Of a stretch of DNA of 11,846 bases, positions 1 to 11,846 are shown piece after piece. The stretch covers positions 1 through 11,846 of IMG/VR virus record IMGVR_UViG_2563366972_000001. One strand, written 5' to 3'. Both the position numbers and the translations under genes were made by a program. Within the stretch, counting starts at the first letter, position 1; each line of letters begins with the position of its first letter. Below the pieces are notes generated by a model that was not told the DNA's origin, searched no databases, and was given only the letters and a program-made list of their open reading frames with translations. This DNA comes from a virus (lineage: Duplodnaviria > Heunggongvirae > Uroviricota > Caudoviricetes).

Positions 1-2940
1 ATGCTGTCAGACATAGCGGTCTGCCTGATCCGCTATGTGAAAAATCCCGATTTATGCCCTGCTGAATTGCTGCCATGGCTGGCCTGGGAAATGGCGGTGG
101 ATACCTGGAATGAACACTGGACGGAGACGGAAAAAAGGTCTGCGATAAAACGTGCTGCTTACATCCACCGCCACAGAGGGACTAAAGCGGCGCTGATGGC
201 ATCGCTGGCTGACAGTCCCTTCCGGTCGCAGATTGTTGAGTGGTATGAGCAGACCCCACCCGGGGAGCCGTATACCTTTCGTCTGAACGTGGAGCAGAAG
301 GATTTACCGGTGCTGATGAATGATCATCAGGATCTGAAGCATGCGGTGCTTCGTGCGAAAAATCTGCGCTCATGGTTTTCGGTTCACGTTTATGGTCGCA
401 GTGCAGGCCAGGTTTATGCAGCCGGTTACGCCTGTGCCACCGAATATATAAGGAGCCGCATTTTTCCGACCGGTATCACCCTGACGGAAACGGAAGTCTG
501 GCTGGAGCCCGGGGAATGTCGTTTTATCGGCGTCACTATCCTGCCACCGGAGGCGGAAGACAAAAGTTTCACTGTCCGGGTTGCAGAGCCTGGTTGTGTC
601 ACAGCCACCCTGGCGGAAGGCGGTTTTCTACTGACGGGACAGACGTACGGAGAATGCCAGGTTACCGTGACCACCCTCAACGGTATCAGTTGCACGGTCA
701 GCGTGAAGGTGGTTCCGGTGCTGGCGTTTGTCTCCCGGGTGGAGTCTGCTGACCGGCCCTTATTTTTTGTCCGGCCTGAAAACGCTGATTTCCTGATTAA
801 TTACGGTGACGGTGATAACAGAGAGTATGCGCTCAGGAGTACAAATTCCGGTGTGCTGTATGGTGTATACGCCACACGCCCGCTGACGGAGGGTACCGAA
901 TATCTTATTACCGTAAAAAACCCCGGGCAGGCCACGCTGCAACGCACAGCAGACGCGTTCTCCGCCGCCCTGAATCCGGTCACGGAGCTGGTTCGTTATA
1001 CGGGAACAGTGAGTTCATTAGCGTCGTTTGTCAGTGGACAGCGAAACCTGGTCACTGTACATGACGACGCCTTTAAGGGACTGCAGGGGGTACGGGACTG
1101 TTACAGCCTGTTTACTGGTTGTACCGCACTGGAGACGGTTCCCGCCACACTCTTCGCCGGCTTCACTGAGGCCCGGAGTTTCAGAGGCGTCTTCAGTAAT
1201 TGTACCTCGCTGTCAGCTGTCCCTGACGGCTTATTCCGTGGTCTGGAGAACGCGGGTACGTTTGACAGTGCATTTTATGGCTGCAGCGCGTTGCAGACGG
1301 TGGGGCGAGACCTGTTTTCAGGCTGCACATCGGCCAAGGATTTTGGCAGGCTTTTTTATAACTGTACCTCACTGACCAGTATCGGCGAGGGGCTGTTTAC
1401 TGGCTGTGTCAGTGCCACGCAGTTCAGGGAGGCGTTTTATTCCTGCAGTCGACTGGCGACCATTCCCGGAGGTATCTTCAGCCATGTGCCTGGCGGGGAT
1501 TTTTCCCGGACATTCAGCAAATGTACGTCACTGACGGCGGTACCTTCCGGGATGTTCAGCCCGTGCATCCGCTCAACGACATTCCGGGAGGCATTTATGG
1601 ACTGCAGTGCATTACAGTCCCTCCCGGATGGCCTGTTTGAAAATCTGACCAGCGTCACCACCTTCAACAGTGTGTTCAGAAACTGTACGGCGCTGCGTAC
1701 CACCGGAGACCATCTGTTCCGTAACTGCACGGGGGCAGGAGATTTTTCTTTCGCATTTTACGGTGATAAATCTCTGCAAAGCACCGGAGAGGGGCTTCTG
1801 GCAGGCTGTACCGGTGCAAAAGACTTTGCTTCGGCATTTTATAACTGCCGGGTGCTGAGCGTAATGCCGGATTTTGGTGACTGCCGTGAGCTGACGACCC
1901 TTCATTCTGCATTTCGTAACTGCGAGTCACTGACGGAGATCCCTGACGGTGCGTTCAGAGGGGCTGAAAATCTCATCAACGTGTATAACGCCTTTATGGC
2001 GTGTTCCGGTCTGCTGCGCGTGGGGGAACGTGTATTCAGTGACTGCACCGCCCTGACACAGGTCCGGGGGCTGTTCGTCGACTGTGTCTCGCTGCGCTCT
2101 GTTGGAGCCCGCTTATTTGACGGGTGCTCAGAAATTAAAGAGCTACTGGAGGTATTCAGGAACTGCCGCGCTCTGCGCACCCTGCCGCTGATGCTGTTTG
2201 GCAATGTTCCCGGAGTCACCTATCTCTGGATGACGTTCAGTGGCTGCATTTCGCTGGAAAGCCTCCCGGACGACCTGTTTGGAGCCATGACGAAACTGAC
2301 GACCGCCAGGGGTATTTTTTATTCCTGCACATCACTGACCACTGTTCCGCCCGGTGTGTTTGAGCACAATCCGCTGCTGGTTACGGTGGAGAGTGCTTTT
2401 GCGGGATGTACAGCGCTGCAGACCGTACCGGAGTCGCTGTTTGCTGCCTGTCCGCTGATATCCGTCTTCCTGAGTGCGTTTTCTGAAACCGGACTGGTCT
2501 CAGTGCCTGCAGGGCTGTTCCGTCACAACCTGCACGTCACCACGTTCAGTAAGGTGTTTATGAAATGTTCCCGTCTGGAGGTGGTCCCCGCGGATCTGTT
2601 TTCCGGTAACAGTCTGGCCACGGATTTCAGCTATGCGTTCAGCCAGTGCACATCACTGAAACAGGCGGAAACAGGCTTGCTTTCCGGTACAGCGGTATCG
2701 GATGCCGGGCACCTCTTTGACAGATGTGTATCACTGGAAAGTATTGTGGAGGCGATTTTCAGCCCGGATTTTTTCAGTACGGTGACGGATGTAAGAAGCG
2801 CGTTTGAAGGGTGTGTGAAGCTGCGCGGGCACGGGCTGTCATTTATCAGCAGACTGCCTGAGCAGGTCATCCATGCAAGAACACTGTTTCAGTGCACAGC
2901 ACTGGACGATTACGGCGAATTGCCGACAGGATGGAGTTAA
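1..2940 (+). CDS. 5'-partial baseplate wedge protein (P2 gpI-like) fused in frame to an ~820-aa C-terminal extension: beta-rich, possibly Ig-like, segment plus tandem Cys-containing LRR-like repeats
   Basis: One uninterrupted frame from window position 1 to TAA at 2938-2940; the window starts inside the gene, so the true start lies upstream. Residues ~1-155 carry the tail-protein-I hallmark 'NPDLCPAELLPWLAWEMAVDTWNEHWTETEKRSAIKRAAY...EWYEQTPPGEPYTFRLNV', which aligns to my recollection of P2 gpI (NPDTCPANLLPWLAWAFSVDRWDEKW...). Where gpI normally ends (~nt 465) the frame continues for >800 aa. Residues ~355-979 are ~22 repeats of ~27 aa with motif F-x-x-C-[TS]-x-L-x-x-[VI]-P-x-x-L-F. Confidence 0.8.
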   Translation: MLSDIAVCLIRYVKNPDLCPAELLPWLAWEMAVDTWNEHWTETEKRSAIKRAAYIHRHRGTKAALMASLADSPFRSQIVEWYEQTPPGEPYTFRLNVEQKDLPVLMNDHQDLKHAVLRAKNLRSWFSVHVYGRSAGQVYAAGYACATEYIRSRIFPTGITLTETEVWLEPGECRFIGVTILPPEAEDKSFTVRVAEPGCVTATLAEGGFLLTGQTYGECQVTVTTLNGISCTVSVKVVPVLAFVSRVESADRPLFFVRPENADFLINYGDGDNREYALRSTNSGVLYGVYATRPLTEGTEYLITVKNPGQATLQRTADAFSAALNPVTELVRYTGTVSSLASFVSGQRNLVTVHDDAFKGLQGVRDCYSLFTGCTALETVPATLFAGFTEARSFRGVFSNCTSLSAVPDGLFRGLENAGTFDSAFYGCSALQTVGRDLFSGCTSAKDFGRLFYNCTSLTSIGEGLFTGCVSATQFREAFYSCSRLATIPGGIFSHVPGGDFSRTFSKCTSLTAVPSGMFSPCIRSTTFREAFMDCSALQSLPDGLFENLTSVTTFNSVFRNCTALRTTGDHLFRNCTGAGDFSFAFYGDKSLQSTGEGLLAGCTGAKDFASAFYNCRVLSVMPDFGDCRELTTLHSAFRNCESLTEIPDGAFRGAENLINVYNAFMACSGLLRVGERVFSDCTALTQVRGLFVDCVSLRSVGARLFDGCSEIKELLEVFRNCRALRTLPLMLFGNVPGVTYLWMTFSGCISLESLPDDLFGAMTKLTTARGIFYSCTSLTTVPPGVFEHNPLLVTVESAFAGCTALQTVPESLFAACPLISVFLSAFSETGLVSVPAGLFRHNLHVTTFSKVFMKCSRLEVVPADLFSGNSLATDFSYAFSQCTSLKQAETGLLSGTAVSDAGHLFDRCVSLESIVEAIFSPDFFSTVTDVRSAFEGCVKLRGHGLSFISRLPEQVIHARTLFQCTALDDYGELPTGWS
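1063..2937 (+). repeat. Protein-level tandem repeat array (~22 units x ~81 nt) inside the gpI-fusion ORF; leucine-rich-repeat-like with one conserved Cys per unit
   Basis: Translation shows recurring units such as 'FSNCTSLSAVPDGLFRGLENAGTFDSA', 'FYNCTSLTSIGEGLFTGCVSATQFREA', 'FSKCTSLTAVPSGMFSPCIRSTTFREA', 'FYSCTSLTTVPPGVFEHNPLLVTVESA'. Units are diverged at nucleotide level, so this is an old internal repeat, not a recent duplication. Confidence 0.7.
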
Positions 2941-2942
2941 CC

Positions 2943-11066: not shown

Positions 11067-11090
11067 TGTTTTCTGGATCAGGAAATAAAA

Positions 11091-11846
11091 ATGTCTGTAT
11101 TAATTTCTGGTGTGCTGACTGATGGCGCAGGACTCCCCATGTCCGGATACCATATTATTCTGAAAGCCCGGCAGAATACATCTGCAGTGGTCATGAGAAC
11201 GGTGGCTACAGTGGTGACAGGGCCGACGGGAGAATATGCTTTTGAAGCACAGACCGGAAGATATGATGTTTATCTTCGGTCGTGTATTGAAAGAGAATAT
11301 TGTGTCGGTGATATTTCGGTTTACGACGACTCCAGGTCCGGCACGCTGAACGATTTTCTGACTGCCCTTGATGAAGGCGATTTAAAGCCGGATGTAGTGA
11401 AACGCTTTGAGGAAATGGTGGCGCAGGCGCAGCAGAGCGCGGAAGCGGCAGCGGAAAGCGAACGACAGGCCGGGCAACATGTCGCTGATGCGCAACAAAT
11501 TAAGAGCGACTGCGAGACGCTGGCGGATAACGTACAGCAGAACGCAGAGGCCGTTGCCGAAGACAAAAAACAGGTTGAAATTCTGGCCTCTCAGATTGAG
11601 GATACCGCCTCAAAAGTCAGACAGGATGCCGAAGCGGCCAGAAAGGCCGCATCTGATGCGGAGCAGGCCAGGGATGAGATTGATACCGCATTATCAGCGA
11701 CACTCAAAACGGCTAACCACCTGTCAGAAATTGCGGCAGAAGGCGAAGAGGCGCAACAGGAATCCCGCGATAATCTGGGACTGAAAAGCGCCGCTACAAT
11801 GGAGCCACAGAGTGATATTTATGACCGGACAGAAGGCCGACTGGCG
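11091..11846 (+). CDS. stf: Side tail fiber protein, 5' part only (lambda Stf-like N-terminal domain followed by an Ala/Gln/Glu-rich helical shaft); runs off the window end
   Basis: Not in the supplied ORF track because there is no stop inside the window. ATG at 11091 with an AGGA RBS; the frame is open for 252 codons to the window edge. 'MSVLISGVLTDGAGLPMSGYHIILKARQNTSAVV...SVYDDSRSGTLNDFLTALDEGDLKPDVVKRFEEMV' aligns with the remembered lambda Stf N-terminus (MAVKISGVLKDGTGKPVQNCTIQLKARRNSTTVV...TVYEDSQPGTLNDFL...). Confidence 0.75.
   Translation, partial: MSVLISGVLTDGAGLPMSGYHIILKARQNTSAVVMRTVATVVTGPTGEYAFEAQTGRYDVYLRSCIEREYCVGDISVYDDSRSGTLNDFLTALDEGDLKPDVVKRFEEMVAQAQQSAEAAAESERQAGQHVADAQQIKSDCETLADNVQQNAEAVAEDKKQVEILASQIEDTASKVRQDAEAARKAASDAEQARDEIDTALSATLKTANHLSEIAAEGEEAQQESRDNLGLKSAATMEPQSDIYDRTEGRLA

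Follow-up and report, generated by a model that had tools for sequence, protein, structure and literature searches.

Tail-gene block and element type

The window, by which we mean the whole analysed stretch of 11,846 nt, corresponds to positions 36-11881 of locus L013 on scaffold KB733034.1 of the E. coli assembly GCA_000352305.1. It is a single contig between two assembly gaps, with N runs on both sides, and because of these boundaries both its first gene, a gpI fusion, and its last, an Stf-like gene, are cut. The window carries a tail-gene block comprising I, H, G, FI, FII, E/E′, T, U, X and D and the start of stf, and the three gene types regarded as receptor-binding candidates (gpI fusion, H-type fibre, Stf-type fibre) are all encoded on its + strand.

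Past the fibre and chaperone genes that follow the gpI fusion, and ahead of the sheath gene, lies a terminator-like hairpin with a T run (5131..5158, +). Its position corresponds to that of the putative V-operon terminator which P2 carries after G. The tail sheath gene (5167..6642, +; Pfam Phage_sheath_1 and Phage_sheath_1C, phrog_23) is followed by the tail tube gene (6639..7157, +; Pfam Phage_tube, E 3.5e-22) and by the tail chaperone gene, with E at 7219-7521 and E+E′ at 7219..7658 (+; Pfam Phage_TAC_7, P2 E+E′ annotation). E+E′ is read via a -1 frameshift at T TTT TTG (7479-7485), where the slippery site and an open -1 frame were seen. The block continues with the 550-aa tape measure protein (7639..9291, +; phrog_3654 and tape-measure phrogs), gpU (9294..9782, +; Pfam Phage_P2_GpU, 162 aa in the L013 gene call), gpX (9757..9975, +; Pfam Phage_tail_X, E 2.9e-19) and the baseplate hub or late control protein gpD (9966..11066, +; phrog_52, E 2.9e-98, with a weak Pfam Phage_GPD match). 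Searches with Pfam and phrog profiles found no fibre-like genes in the window other than the H-type and Stf-type ones, the rest being sheath, tube, E/E′, tape measure, U, X and D.

Upstream on the same scaffold (locus L018), genes for a portal, a protease-capsid fusion, a cement protein and head-tail proteins were found, and terminase is present in the sister loci L002 and L006. The element is an E. coli prophage with a λ-type head and a P2-type contractile tail. A tailocin requires a tail cluster without head and packaging genes, and is therefore ruled out by the head genes on the scaffold.

The assembly gaps, the decay of sister copies at their stf end and the distance to the closest isolated phage, which is no nearer than 63% sheath identity, might point to a defective prophage in which the tail genes have fallen silent or their products fail to assemble, so that none of the three candidates matters. 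This is highly improbable given that every tail ORF of the window is unbroken, the E/E′ frameshift site included, that head genes lie on the same scaffold, that the upstream gap is filled in a 99%-identical copy in which V, W and J are intact, and that the LRR relatives are under purifying selection, as detailed below.

The gpI fusion and its LRR cassette

The first gene (1..2940, +) encodes a gpI-LRR fusion, matching Pfam Tail_P2_I, LRR_5 and LRR_8 and, over its full length, phrog_9915. Its in-window ORF comprises 979 aa of a 1005-aa protein, the first 26 codons having been lost in the upstream assembly gap (P0001, 1005 aa, is 96% identical); as the window starts at this gap, the ATG at position 1 is an internal codon. 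Tail_P2_I (PF09684) was found at aa 10-123 (E 1.3e-31, 109.7 bits, cutoff 20.6). The region 1..462 (+) holds the gpI core, a triplex/wedge subunit (aa 1-132), with a conserved gpI tail reaching aa ~152 and a flexible linker at aa 133-151. The core matches pyocin R2 Tri2 PA0619 (6u5b; E 8.4e-16; 12 chains in 2 entries). The fibre gene comes after the fusion within the window; the end of Baseplate_J, which lies upstream and is absent from the window, overlaps the fusion gene in copies that are 96-99% identical (L002, L017, L019-L022). By sequence, then, the fusion is a P2 gpI-type baseplate wedge (triplex, Tri2) protein.

Core and extension form one uninterrupted ORF, free of stop codons and frameshifts, which is kept at 96% identity in P0001, L017 and L019-L022; since gpI is an essential structural protein, the LRR should be present on every assembled baseplate. 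In solved tails, the gpI-type subunit is where the fibre docks. In phage E217, one gp45 is found in each of six triplexes, and the fibre docks on a trigger-transmitting gp45 loop (PMC10329688). This and the chain counts of 6u5b predict one gpI per wedge triplex, which would amount to six per tail.

The C-terminal extension adds 830 residues to a core that is kept whole. The AF2 model of the fusion has a mean pLDDT of 88.6, with values >90 from aa 155 on and <50 for the linker. The extension opens with a Big_2 Ig-like domain (463..717, +; aa ~155-239), for which Pfam Big_2 scored under the family cutoff (E 0.0017) and the domain is precomputed in homologues; Foldseek matched its fold to the C-terminal Ig domain of λ gpV (7t4f and 2l04). 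There follows a CBM56-like beta-sandwich with a YGDGD motif (718..990, +; aa ~240-330), recognised by phmmer and by Foldseek, which gave 7r3t and 7quz as fold matches. Across both domains, phmmer found the Big_2-CBM56 tandem of Paenibacillus BglH (7quz, E 1e-6); searched alone, the sandwich had no Pfam hits with E values of 10 or below, and its likeness to CBM56 is weak. A CBM56-like sandwich was also found before the LRR in bacterial surface proteins, from their consensus.

The remainder is an LRR solenoid of about 23 turns of 27 residues with a C-terminal cap (991..2937, +), as seen from autocorrelation, the repeat table and the model. Autocorrelation peaks lie at 27, 54 and 81 aa, and the table holds 22 full repeats plus caps, with the pattern F-x-x-C-x-x-L-x-x-[VI]-P-x-x-L-F-x8-F-x3. 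Foldseek on the AF2 model returned LGR5, 4gt6, Toll and TLRs at probability 1.0, and the array is of the BspA/LRR_5/DUF285 type. The profiles LRR_5 (43.4 bits, cutoff 27.7) and LRR_8 (35.2 bits, cutoff 27) were, like Tail_P2_I, above their cutoffs, which bears out an earlier note on this DNA in describing a baseplate-anchored LRR solenoid fused to gpI.

A 71-aa partner gene (2943..3158, +; phrog_11426) lies conserved between the fusion and the fibre gene; it begins 3 nt beyond the stop codon of the LRR gene, and its last 19 nt are shared with the start of the fibre gene. The earlier note had overlooked it. The gene directly follows the gpI-Ig-LRR gene in all 68 loci, with the fibre gene next in 66 of them. 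Its AF2 model (pLDDT 72) had no fold match in the PDB. The 71-aa protein might help to fold or mount the LRR arms; shorter LRR-fusion variants of 546-861 aa exist, and the gene is absent at least from the E. coli 861-aa and Salmonella 614-aa loci, which makes an obligatory-helper role doubtful.

Compared with short-gpI relatives (196 aa), nucleotide identity is 97% until nt 395, where homology breaks, to resume at 3127 or 3263. Against L002, dS is 0.84 in the gpI core and 0.02-0.03 in the extension. Fusions of the Ig-LRR module were found with wedge proteins of three families, P2 gpI, Mu gp48 and Phage_Wedge1, in each case directly after Baseplate_J. These sequence comparisons indicate that the extension and the 71-aa gene form a mobile cassette that entered by recombination where the gpI core ends.

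Median dN/dS values, taken over 61 unique genes of the Klebsiella type, are 0.03 in the gpI core and 0.13-0.17 across the Ig, CBM-like and LRR domains (LRR 0.17), and purifying selection acts on the LRR domain of these Klebsiella relatives. Within the LRR repeat, scaffold positions are conserved and surface positions variable, and mean pairwise identity declines from anchor to tip (0.83, 0.64, 0.56, 0.49).

The H-type and Stf-type fibres

The P2 gpH-type tail fibre (3140..4567, +; 475 aa) was recognised from Pfam, phrog and P2 gpH matches. Its anchor is the N-domain (aa 1-150), which matches Phage_tail_fib PF12571 with 53.5 bits (cutoff 23) and is 27% identical to P2 gpH aa 26-163 (E 3e-8); the C-terminus of P2 gpH shares 49% identity with aa 172-475 (E 4e-86). 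The next gene (4570..5112, +; Pfam Caudo_TAP) encodes a gpG/Tfa-type tail fibre assembly chaperone, with a PF02413 match (E 6.6e-22, 78.5 bits) and 40% identity to P2 gpG.

GC content is 0.478 in the C-terminal half of the fibre gene (3721-4567) and 0.455 in the chaperone gene, against 0.53-0.55 in flanking genes. Recurrent recombination junctions among relatives lie at 4092/4094, 4286, 4372 and 4513, and the mid-part of the fibre gene (nt 3613-4092) is 94% identical to the phiP27 fibre gene L54. These junctions, the phiP27 match and the lower GC uphold the reading of a P2-type H fibre with an exchanged AT-rich cassette; judged from them, the fibre tip is a swapped, mosaic cassette spanning roughly nt 4093-4512.

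The λ Stf-type side fibre (11091..11846, +) is represented by its collar domain and the start of its coiled coil. Only codons 1-252, one third of the gene, lie inside the window, the frame being open to the window end. PF08400, the N-terminal domain of prophage tail fibres, matches aa 1-134 (E 2.2e-54, 183.5 bits, cutoff 26.6), and λ Stf (orf-401) shares 42% identity over the first 123 aa (E 9e-29), so that the identification as an Stf-like side fibre holds. The middle of stf falls inside the downstream gap of 460 N. Past the gap, L013 12342-12878 encodes a C-terminal piece of 178 aa that is 98% identical to aa 549-726 of the L012 Stf, and a DUF4376 gene comes next, whose product showed no similarity to λ Tfa by BLASTP. 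This genome probably has an intact Stf-type fibre.

Six LRR-carrying sister prophages could be checked at this end: an Stf-DUF4376 deletion remnant is left in four (L017, L019, L021 and L022), which implies that the three-binder state is polymorphic and not a fixed design. A full stf is present in 5/5 short-gpI relatives (L001, L011, L012, L014, L015). This difference would fit two binders at a time, the LRR cassette replacing the Stf-type fibre and the three-gene state being transient before stf decays. However, the four remnants trace back to two deletion events, L017, L019 and L022 having one common junction, so the association of LRR with stf loss is not statistically meaningful. Moreover, stf lies at the prophage end, where decay is common, and this genome and L020 retain stf sequence past the deletion point. 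We therefore consider such a replacement unlikely.

As to the three receptor-binding candidates of the earlier note, all three genes are present, but two are cut by the assembly gaps and the Stf-type gene is seen for codons 1-252 only. As far as the window shows, both candidates other than Stf are intact ORFs. Each candidate also bears a recognisable part for tail anchoring: gpI, to which the LRR is covalently joined, the tail-collar N-domain of the H-type fibre and the collar domain of the Stf-type fibre. The description of the particle as unusually multivalent proved overstated, since two fibre sets are the norm in this prophage lineage and in phiP27, and phages with several receptor binders, such as T4, CBA120 and phi92, are well known. 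The unusual member of the three is the LRR solenoid fused to a core baseplate protein.

Proposed role of the LRR arm and comparison with known systems

We propose that six monomeric LRR arms would be displayed per baseplate beside the fibre docks, acting as an accessory adhesin that makes reversible contact with a cell-surface glycan or protein and so might make adsorption faster or wider. The trimeric H-type fibre, folded by its Tfa-type chaperone, would be the main, exchangeable receptor binder. In Ur-λ, Stf speeds adsorption 10-30 fold without being essential, and its collar rings the bare tube (PMC12617516). The Stf-type fibre could likewise be optional, speeding adsorption and often being lost, but its collar would here have to mount on a sheathed tail. 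Taken as a whole, we give this account a slightly better than even chance. That the LRR binds a host receptor is suggested by analogy only, the indirect pointers being its place on the fibre-docking subunit, the fall in conservation from anchor to tip and its adhesin-type relatives. Because proteins with LRR folds take ligands of many kinds, the fold alone does not show the host cell to be the target. To our knowledge, phage receptor binders are nearly all trimers, and a monomeric LRR arm may be too weak a binder to matter, which counts against the adhesin account. A literature search returned no paper or experiment tying this LRR family to adsorption.

Alternatively, the LRR arm could be a decoration that binds mucus glycoproteins or other environmental or animal-host material, as proposed for Ig-like phage decorations, or that shields or stabilises the baseplate rim, leaving host range to the fibres alone. 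BspA-type LRR proteins are adhesins to animal tissue, the LRR relatives are gut Bacteroidota surface proteins, the opening Big_2 domain resembles the dispensable λ gpV C-terminal Ig domain, and many sister prophages do with a 196-aa gpI. However, the module is always carried by the wedge subunit to which the fibre docks, a placement seen in three lineages of baseplate, and never by head or tube proteins, the usual site of pure decorations, and its surface positions diversify as in receptor binders. A purely decorative arm thus appears fairly unlikely, and the accessory-adhesin account is kept. Interest centres on the LRR cassette as portable, widespread and so far uncharacterised.

With P2 gpI, pyocin R2 Tri2 and E217 gp45, the window protein shares an N-terminal Tail_P2_I region of about 150 aa, and relatives share the order Baseplate_J, gpI, fibre. 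It reaches 1005 aa, whereas P2 gpI has 176 aa and pyocin Tri2 177 aa, and its Ig/beta-sandwich/LRR arm is absent from all solved Tri2-type examples. T4 gp7, a large wedge protein of ~1000 aa in the equivalent triplex position, has peripheral extra domains that are structural, bind other baseplate proteins and are not LRRs. The likeness to gp7 lies in size, triplex position and the possession of extra domains.

The H and G genes have the same order as in P2, but the fibre has 475 aa here and 669 aa in P2, and its extreme tip (aa ~400-456) is unrelated to that of gpH. Like λ Stf, the Stf-type fibre has an N-terminal collar domain followed by a coiled coil; unlike it, the gene sits after gpD in a contractile-tail phage and is partnered by a DUF4376 protein. 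The temperate myovirus phiP27 carries two fibre sets, L54/L55 and L56/L57, that are homologous to both window fibres (78% nt identity over 11091-11836 for the Stf-type homologue), but its wedge protein L53, which precedes the fibre, has ~196 aa without an LRR extension.

The Big_2 domain of λ gpV is likewise a C-terminal add-on to an essential structural protein; in the window gpI, however, the Ig domain is the stalk of a far larger module, on a baseplate wedge and not on the tube. Related LRR arrays number 1,154 cluster representatives at E<=1e-30, and among 55 sampled, BACON was found in 18 and Mfa-like fimbrillin in 5. With BspA/LRR_5/DUF285 surface proteins (Faecalibacterium 4GT6, BACON-LRR lipoproteins of Bacteroidota), the extension shares the repeat type and the sandwich-plus-LRR unit; those proteins are anchored on the bacterial cell surface, whereas the LRR of the window is anchored on a phage baseplate protein.

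Gene content of the tail contig

The window was found to be identical to positions 36-11881 of an E. coli locus (L013; assembly GCA_000352305.1, scaffold KB733034.1), and since runs of N flank it on both sides, it represents one contig between two assembly gaps. Gap sizes in the scaffolds were 35 N or more (L013 1-35), 460 N (L013 11882-12341) and 3265 N (L018, a locus on the same scaffold, 3794-7058). The upstream gap covers the V, W and J genes together with the first 26 codons of gpI, and the downstream gap the middle of stf. Upstream on this scaffold, and likewise in sister loci, there are genes for portal, protease-capsid fusion, cement and head-tail proteins; two of the sister loci additionally contain a terminase. 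The element combines a λ-type head with a P2-type contractile tail and is a prophage rather than a tailocin. As judged by the sheath, the closest isolated phages are Hafnia yong2 and Citrobacter Chris1, with only 61-63% identity.

All genuine genes of the window lie on the plus strand without exception. The gpI fusion (1-2940) is followed by a 71-aa gene (2943-3158), the tail fibre (3140-4567), its chaperone (4570-5112), the sheath (5167-6642), the tube (6639-7157), chaperone E (7219-7521), the tape measure (7639-9291), gpU (9294-9782), gpX (9757-9975), gpD (9966-11066) and a Stf-type frame running from 11091 beyond the window end. The -1 frame of gene E is open to 7658, overlapping the tape-measure start, and a P2-like -1 frameshift site (T TTT TTG, 7479-7485) predicts an E+E' product (7219-7658). 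Strong terminator-like hairpins with T runs were located in the intergenic regions after the fibre chaperone (5131-5158), where P2 has its putative V-operon terminator, and after the tube gene (7177-7204). The sigma-70 promoter scan was uninformative, returning 4 sites and hence fewer than expected by chance (9.5 in shuffled controls). A 181-aa antisense ORF (5121-5666, minus strand) within the sheath gene, in a region of 62% local GC, is most likely spurious, having no other support.

The gpI-LRR fusion and its mobile cassette

Residues 10-123 of the gpI fusion matched Tail_P2_I (E 1.3e-31), and this core also matched PA0619, the Tri2 protein in the solved baseplate of pyocin R2 (E 8.4e-16). 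Relatives begin 78 nt upstream, so that the ATG with which the window opens lies inside the gene and the complete protein has 1005 aa. The AF2 model (mean pLDDT 88.6; >90 from residue 155 on) revealed a disordered linker (aa 133-151), a Big_2 Ig domain resembling the C-terminal domain of λ gpV, a second beta-sandwich and a long solenoid, the latter built of 22 full repeats and caps, strictly periodic at 27 residues and following the pattern F-x-x-C-x-x-L-x-x-[VI]-P-x-x-L-F-x8-F-x3. Foldseek retrieved the LRR proteins LGR5, Faecalibacterium surface protein 4gt6, Toll and TLRs, as well as Tri2 and the Big_2-CBM56 tandem of a Paenibacillus glucanase; the last likeness was also evident in sequence, spanning both domains at E 1e-6. 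Searched alone, the sandwich domain matched no Pfam family at E up to 10. The LRR solenoid fused to gpI, as described in the earlier note, is present.

In the sister prophages L001, L011 and L012, gpI has 196 aa. Homology of such short-gpI sisters to the window (94-97%) extends to nt 395, breaks, and returns at nt 3127 or 3263. At the protein level the gpI core reaches approximately residue 152 of the window protein, and only the last ~18 residues of the normal gpI are replaced by the extension. Comparison with sister prophage L002 gave a dS of 0.84 for the gpI core and of 0.02-0.03 for the extension, a contrast indicating that the cassette entered a diverged backbone recently. The window cassette (396-3126) had no match in 5,426 complete E. 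coli genomes by megablast and blastn. Klebsiella has many relatives at 44-47% identity (clusters of 877 and 1,551 sequences), among them phage ST16-OXA48phi5.4, in which the gene is labelled merely "tail protein I".

The segment 2941-3139 had been taken for a spacer; it actually contains the 71-aa gene. That it might be a remnant of the old gpI 3' end was likewise considered and rejected, as a conserved gene of family phrog_11426, annotated as function unknown, is found there. Its start lies 3 nt beyond the LRR stop, it shares 19 nt with the beginning of the fibre gene, and it appears to be translationally coupled to both neighbours. It is kept after Ig-LRR fusions in an E. coli sister prophage, in true P2-like Klebsiella prophages and in an E217-like prophage. 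When the small gene was used as sole query, 68 loci were gathered (2 species-representative genomes and 66 viral contigs); the ORF immediately 5' of it was a gpI core-Big_2-sandwich-LRR fusion in every one (68/68), and a tail-collar fibre gene came next in 66 of the 68. LRR variants of 861 aa in E. coli and of 614 aa in Salmonella were found without the small gene. The 71-aa protein gave nothing significant against Pfam, and its AF2 model of moderate confidence (pLDDT 72; three helices and a hairpin) matched no PDB fold at E<=0.001. With low confidence, we suggest that it is a putative chaperone or mounting factor.

The Ig-LRR module was found on three wedge families, P2 gpI (PF09684), Mu gp48 (PF10076, locus L009) and Phage_Wedge1 (PF11041, locus L010), the fusion always being encoded immediately after Baseplate_J. 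The Mu gp48-type fusion occupies L009 8001-10836 and the E217-type Wedge1 fusion L010 8001-11672; in the latter locus the small gene is present again, followed by a different (Collar/Big_2) fibre.

In the LRR, the window differs from its closest relative by 15 synonymous and 21 nonsynonymous substitutions, too few to interpret dN/dS, and selection was therefore estimated from 61 unique Klebsiella-type genes. Every domain was under purifying selection, median dN/dS being 0.03 in the gpI core, 0.15 in Big_2, 0.13 in the sandwich and 0.17 in the LRR, and mean pairwise identity dropped from anchor to tip (0.83, 0.64, 0.56 and 0.49). Repeat number was variable, with protein lengths of 546-1049 aa. 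Within the repeat, positions 1, 4, 7, 11, 14, 15, 18 and 24 were conserved and the intervening positions variable, as in a stable scaffold whose surface diversifies.

LRRs of this type are very common, with matches in 19,176 cluster representatives at E<=0.001 and in 1,154 at E<=1e-30. Among 55 sampled relatives, BACON domains accompanied it in 18, Mfa-like fimbrillin in 5 and a phage wedge in only 2, and from this domain company the module derives from an adhesin-type bacterial surface protein family.

The H-type and Stf-type fibres

The N-domain of the H-type fibre (3140-4567) is a tail-collar anchor (PF12571, 53.5 bits; 27% identity to P2 gpH), and residues 172-475 share 49% identity with the P2 gpH C-terminus (E 4e-86). 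The stretch of ~aa 279-398 aligns to P2 gpH almost unchanged, whereas the tip (~aa 400-456) does not align; the chaperone is 40% identical to P2 gpG. GC content drops to 0.478 in the C-terminal half of the fibre gene and to 0.455 in the chaperone gene, compared with 0.53-0.55 elsewhere. Relatives that are 97-99% identical on either side bear different tips (fibres of 405, 419, 461 and 475 aa), with recurring junctions at 4092/4094, 4286, 4372 and 4513-4529. The GC drop and the exchanged tips bear out the proposal of an exchanged, AT-rich specificity cassette in this fibre, tip exchange being classic behaviour of P2-type fibre genes. The fibre cassette also occurs at 86-94% nucleotide identity in the unrelated phages phiP27, Rac-SA53 and an Actinobacillus phage. 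In Klebsiella P2-like prophages, an AIPR-domain gene of the abortive-infection type directly follows the fibre gene (L003 14485-16260); P2 carries the nonessential cargo gene fun(Z) at a similar spot, after G and on the opposite strand.

Codons 1-134 of the Stf-type frame matched PF08400 (E 2.2e-54); over the first 123 aa, identity to λ Stf is 42%. The alternative that the Stf-like fibre had been a misread sheath (5167-6642) or tape measure (7639-9291), no third fibre being present among the listed ORFs, was rejected, since the end-open frame from 11091 encodes this PF08400 protein. The start codon lies 24 nt after the gpD stop, and this interval has no terminator-like hairpin of the kind found after the chaperone gene (stem at 5131-5148) and the tube gene (7177-7194), making co-transcription with the tail genes likely. 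The last 72 nt of the window (11775-11846) are repeated at 94% farther inside the full-length Stf gene of L012 (12617-12688); the assembly probably broke because the window ends within this internal repeat. Past the 460-N gap, the scaffold resumes with a segment that shares 98% identity with the L012 Stf (726 aa) over aa 549-726 of the latter, followed by a DUF4376 gene. In this genome, stf is probably intact, with its middle hidden by the gap.

The state of stf was compared among six LRR-carrying sister prophages. L017, L019 and L022 have one deletion in common, through which Stf aa 1-139 run directly into the final 38 aa of DUF4376; the deletion in L021 is a different one, and in L020 stf runs off the contig. 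The remnants (L017 17981-18424, L019 18149-18589, L022 13904-14347, L021 13523-14176) are in-frame collar-DUF4376 fusions, the collar domain being retained each time. All five short-gpI relatives (5/5) have full stf, but as only two independent deletion events are involved, loss of stf with the LRR is a hint, not a correlation. The Stf N-domains of Ur-λ surround the bare tube as a collar, and Stf fibres raise adsorption speed 10-30 fold without being essential (PMC12617516); the tail of the window, in contrast, is sheathed.

The earlier note had counted up to three receptor-binding candidates on one tail. Three proteins with plausible anchors are indeed encoded, but two of the genes are cut by gaps and the 71-aa gene had been missed. 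For the Stf-like side fibre, the assignment held on the PF08400 and λ Stf matches, but the gene is cut by the gap and often lost in sisters. If the phage is viable, at least two of the three candidates, the gpI fusion and the H-type fibre, must be made, while the LRR arm as third binder is an unproven candidate. "Unusually multivalent" was too strong a wording, given that this lineage, like phiP27, normally has two fibre sets and that stf is often lost. The observation was thus largely right but incomplete, and its interpretation partly supported.

Putative role of the LRR arm

The chief interest of this region lies in its Ig-sandwich-LRR cassette, which is widespread, mobile and as yet unstudied, is carried by the wedge subunit on which the fibre docks, and has a small partner gene. 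Tentatively, and with considerable doubt, the Ig domain, beta-sandwich, LRR arm and 71-aa partner may constitute a self-contained, horizontally mobile receptor-binding "plug-in" that is joined covalently, in at least three lineages of contractile tails (P2 gpI, Mu gp48 and E217-type Wedge1), to the triplex subunit on which the fibre docks. If so, phage receptor binders would include a new class, one built as an LRR monomer instead of a trimeric fibre or spike, and contact of the LRR with its receptor could pass straight to the subunit that triggers sheath contraction. Should the arm bind the host, thousands of Klebsiella, E. coli and Salmonella prophages would carry an overlooked host-recognition element, hidden by the annotation "phage tail protein I" and missed by receptor-binder prediction. 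The module could then also be useful in engineering: it is naturally a cassette, its junction is fixed where the gpI core ends, and it is already movable among three baseplate types, which makes it an appealing means of retargeting phages or tailocins with the fibres left alone. Natural prophage pairs that are 97-99% identical, some differing in the presence of the LRR and others in that of stf, make the question directly testable.

In the literature on LRR proteins, baseplates and phage receptor binders, no study of the wedge-fused LRR family was found; for an LRR-like vibriophage tail gene there is speculation only (PMC10945359). Uncharacterised BspA-type LRR proteins occur in other phages, for example as gp353 of Bacillus phage G and in Aeromonas phage D3. 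As a further example, in the lytic Phapecoctavirus Escherichia phage Mt1B1_P17, the last gene of the fibre cluster (gp118; L094 3078-5750) encodes an 890-aa "tail protein" whose C-terminal LRR segment is related to the window solenoid at ~31% identity.

The solved tail of E217 has six triplexes, each with a single copy of the subunit whose gene follows Baseplate_J; a loop of this subunit is the docking site of the fibre and was proposed to relay the binding signal to the baseplate (PMC10329688). Taken together, these findings lead us to infer that the LRR arms would be built into each baseplate as a putative accessory adhesin, with six monomeric arms positioned beside the fibre docks.
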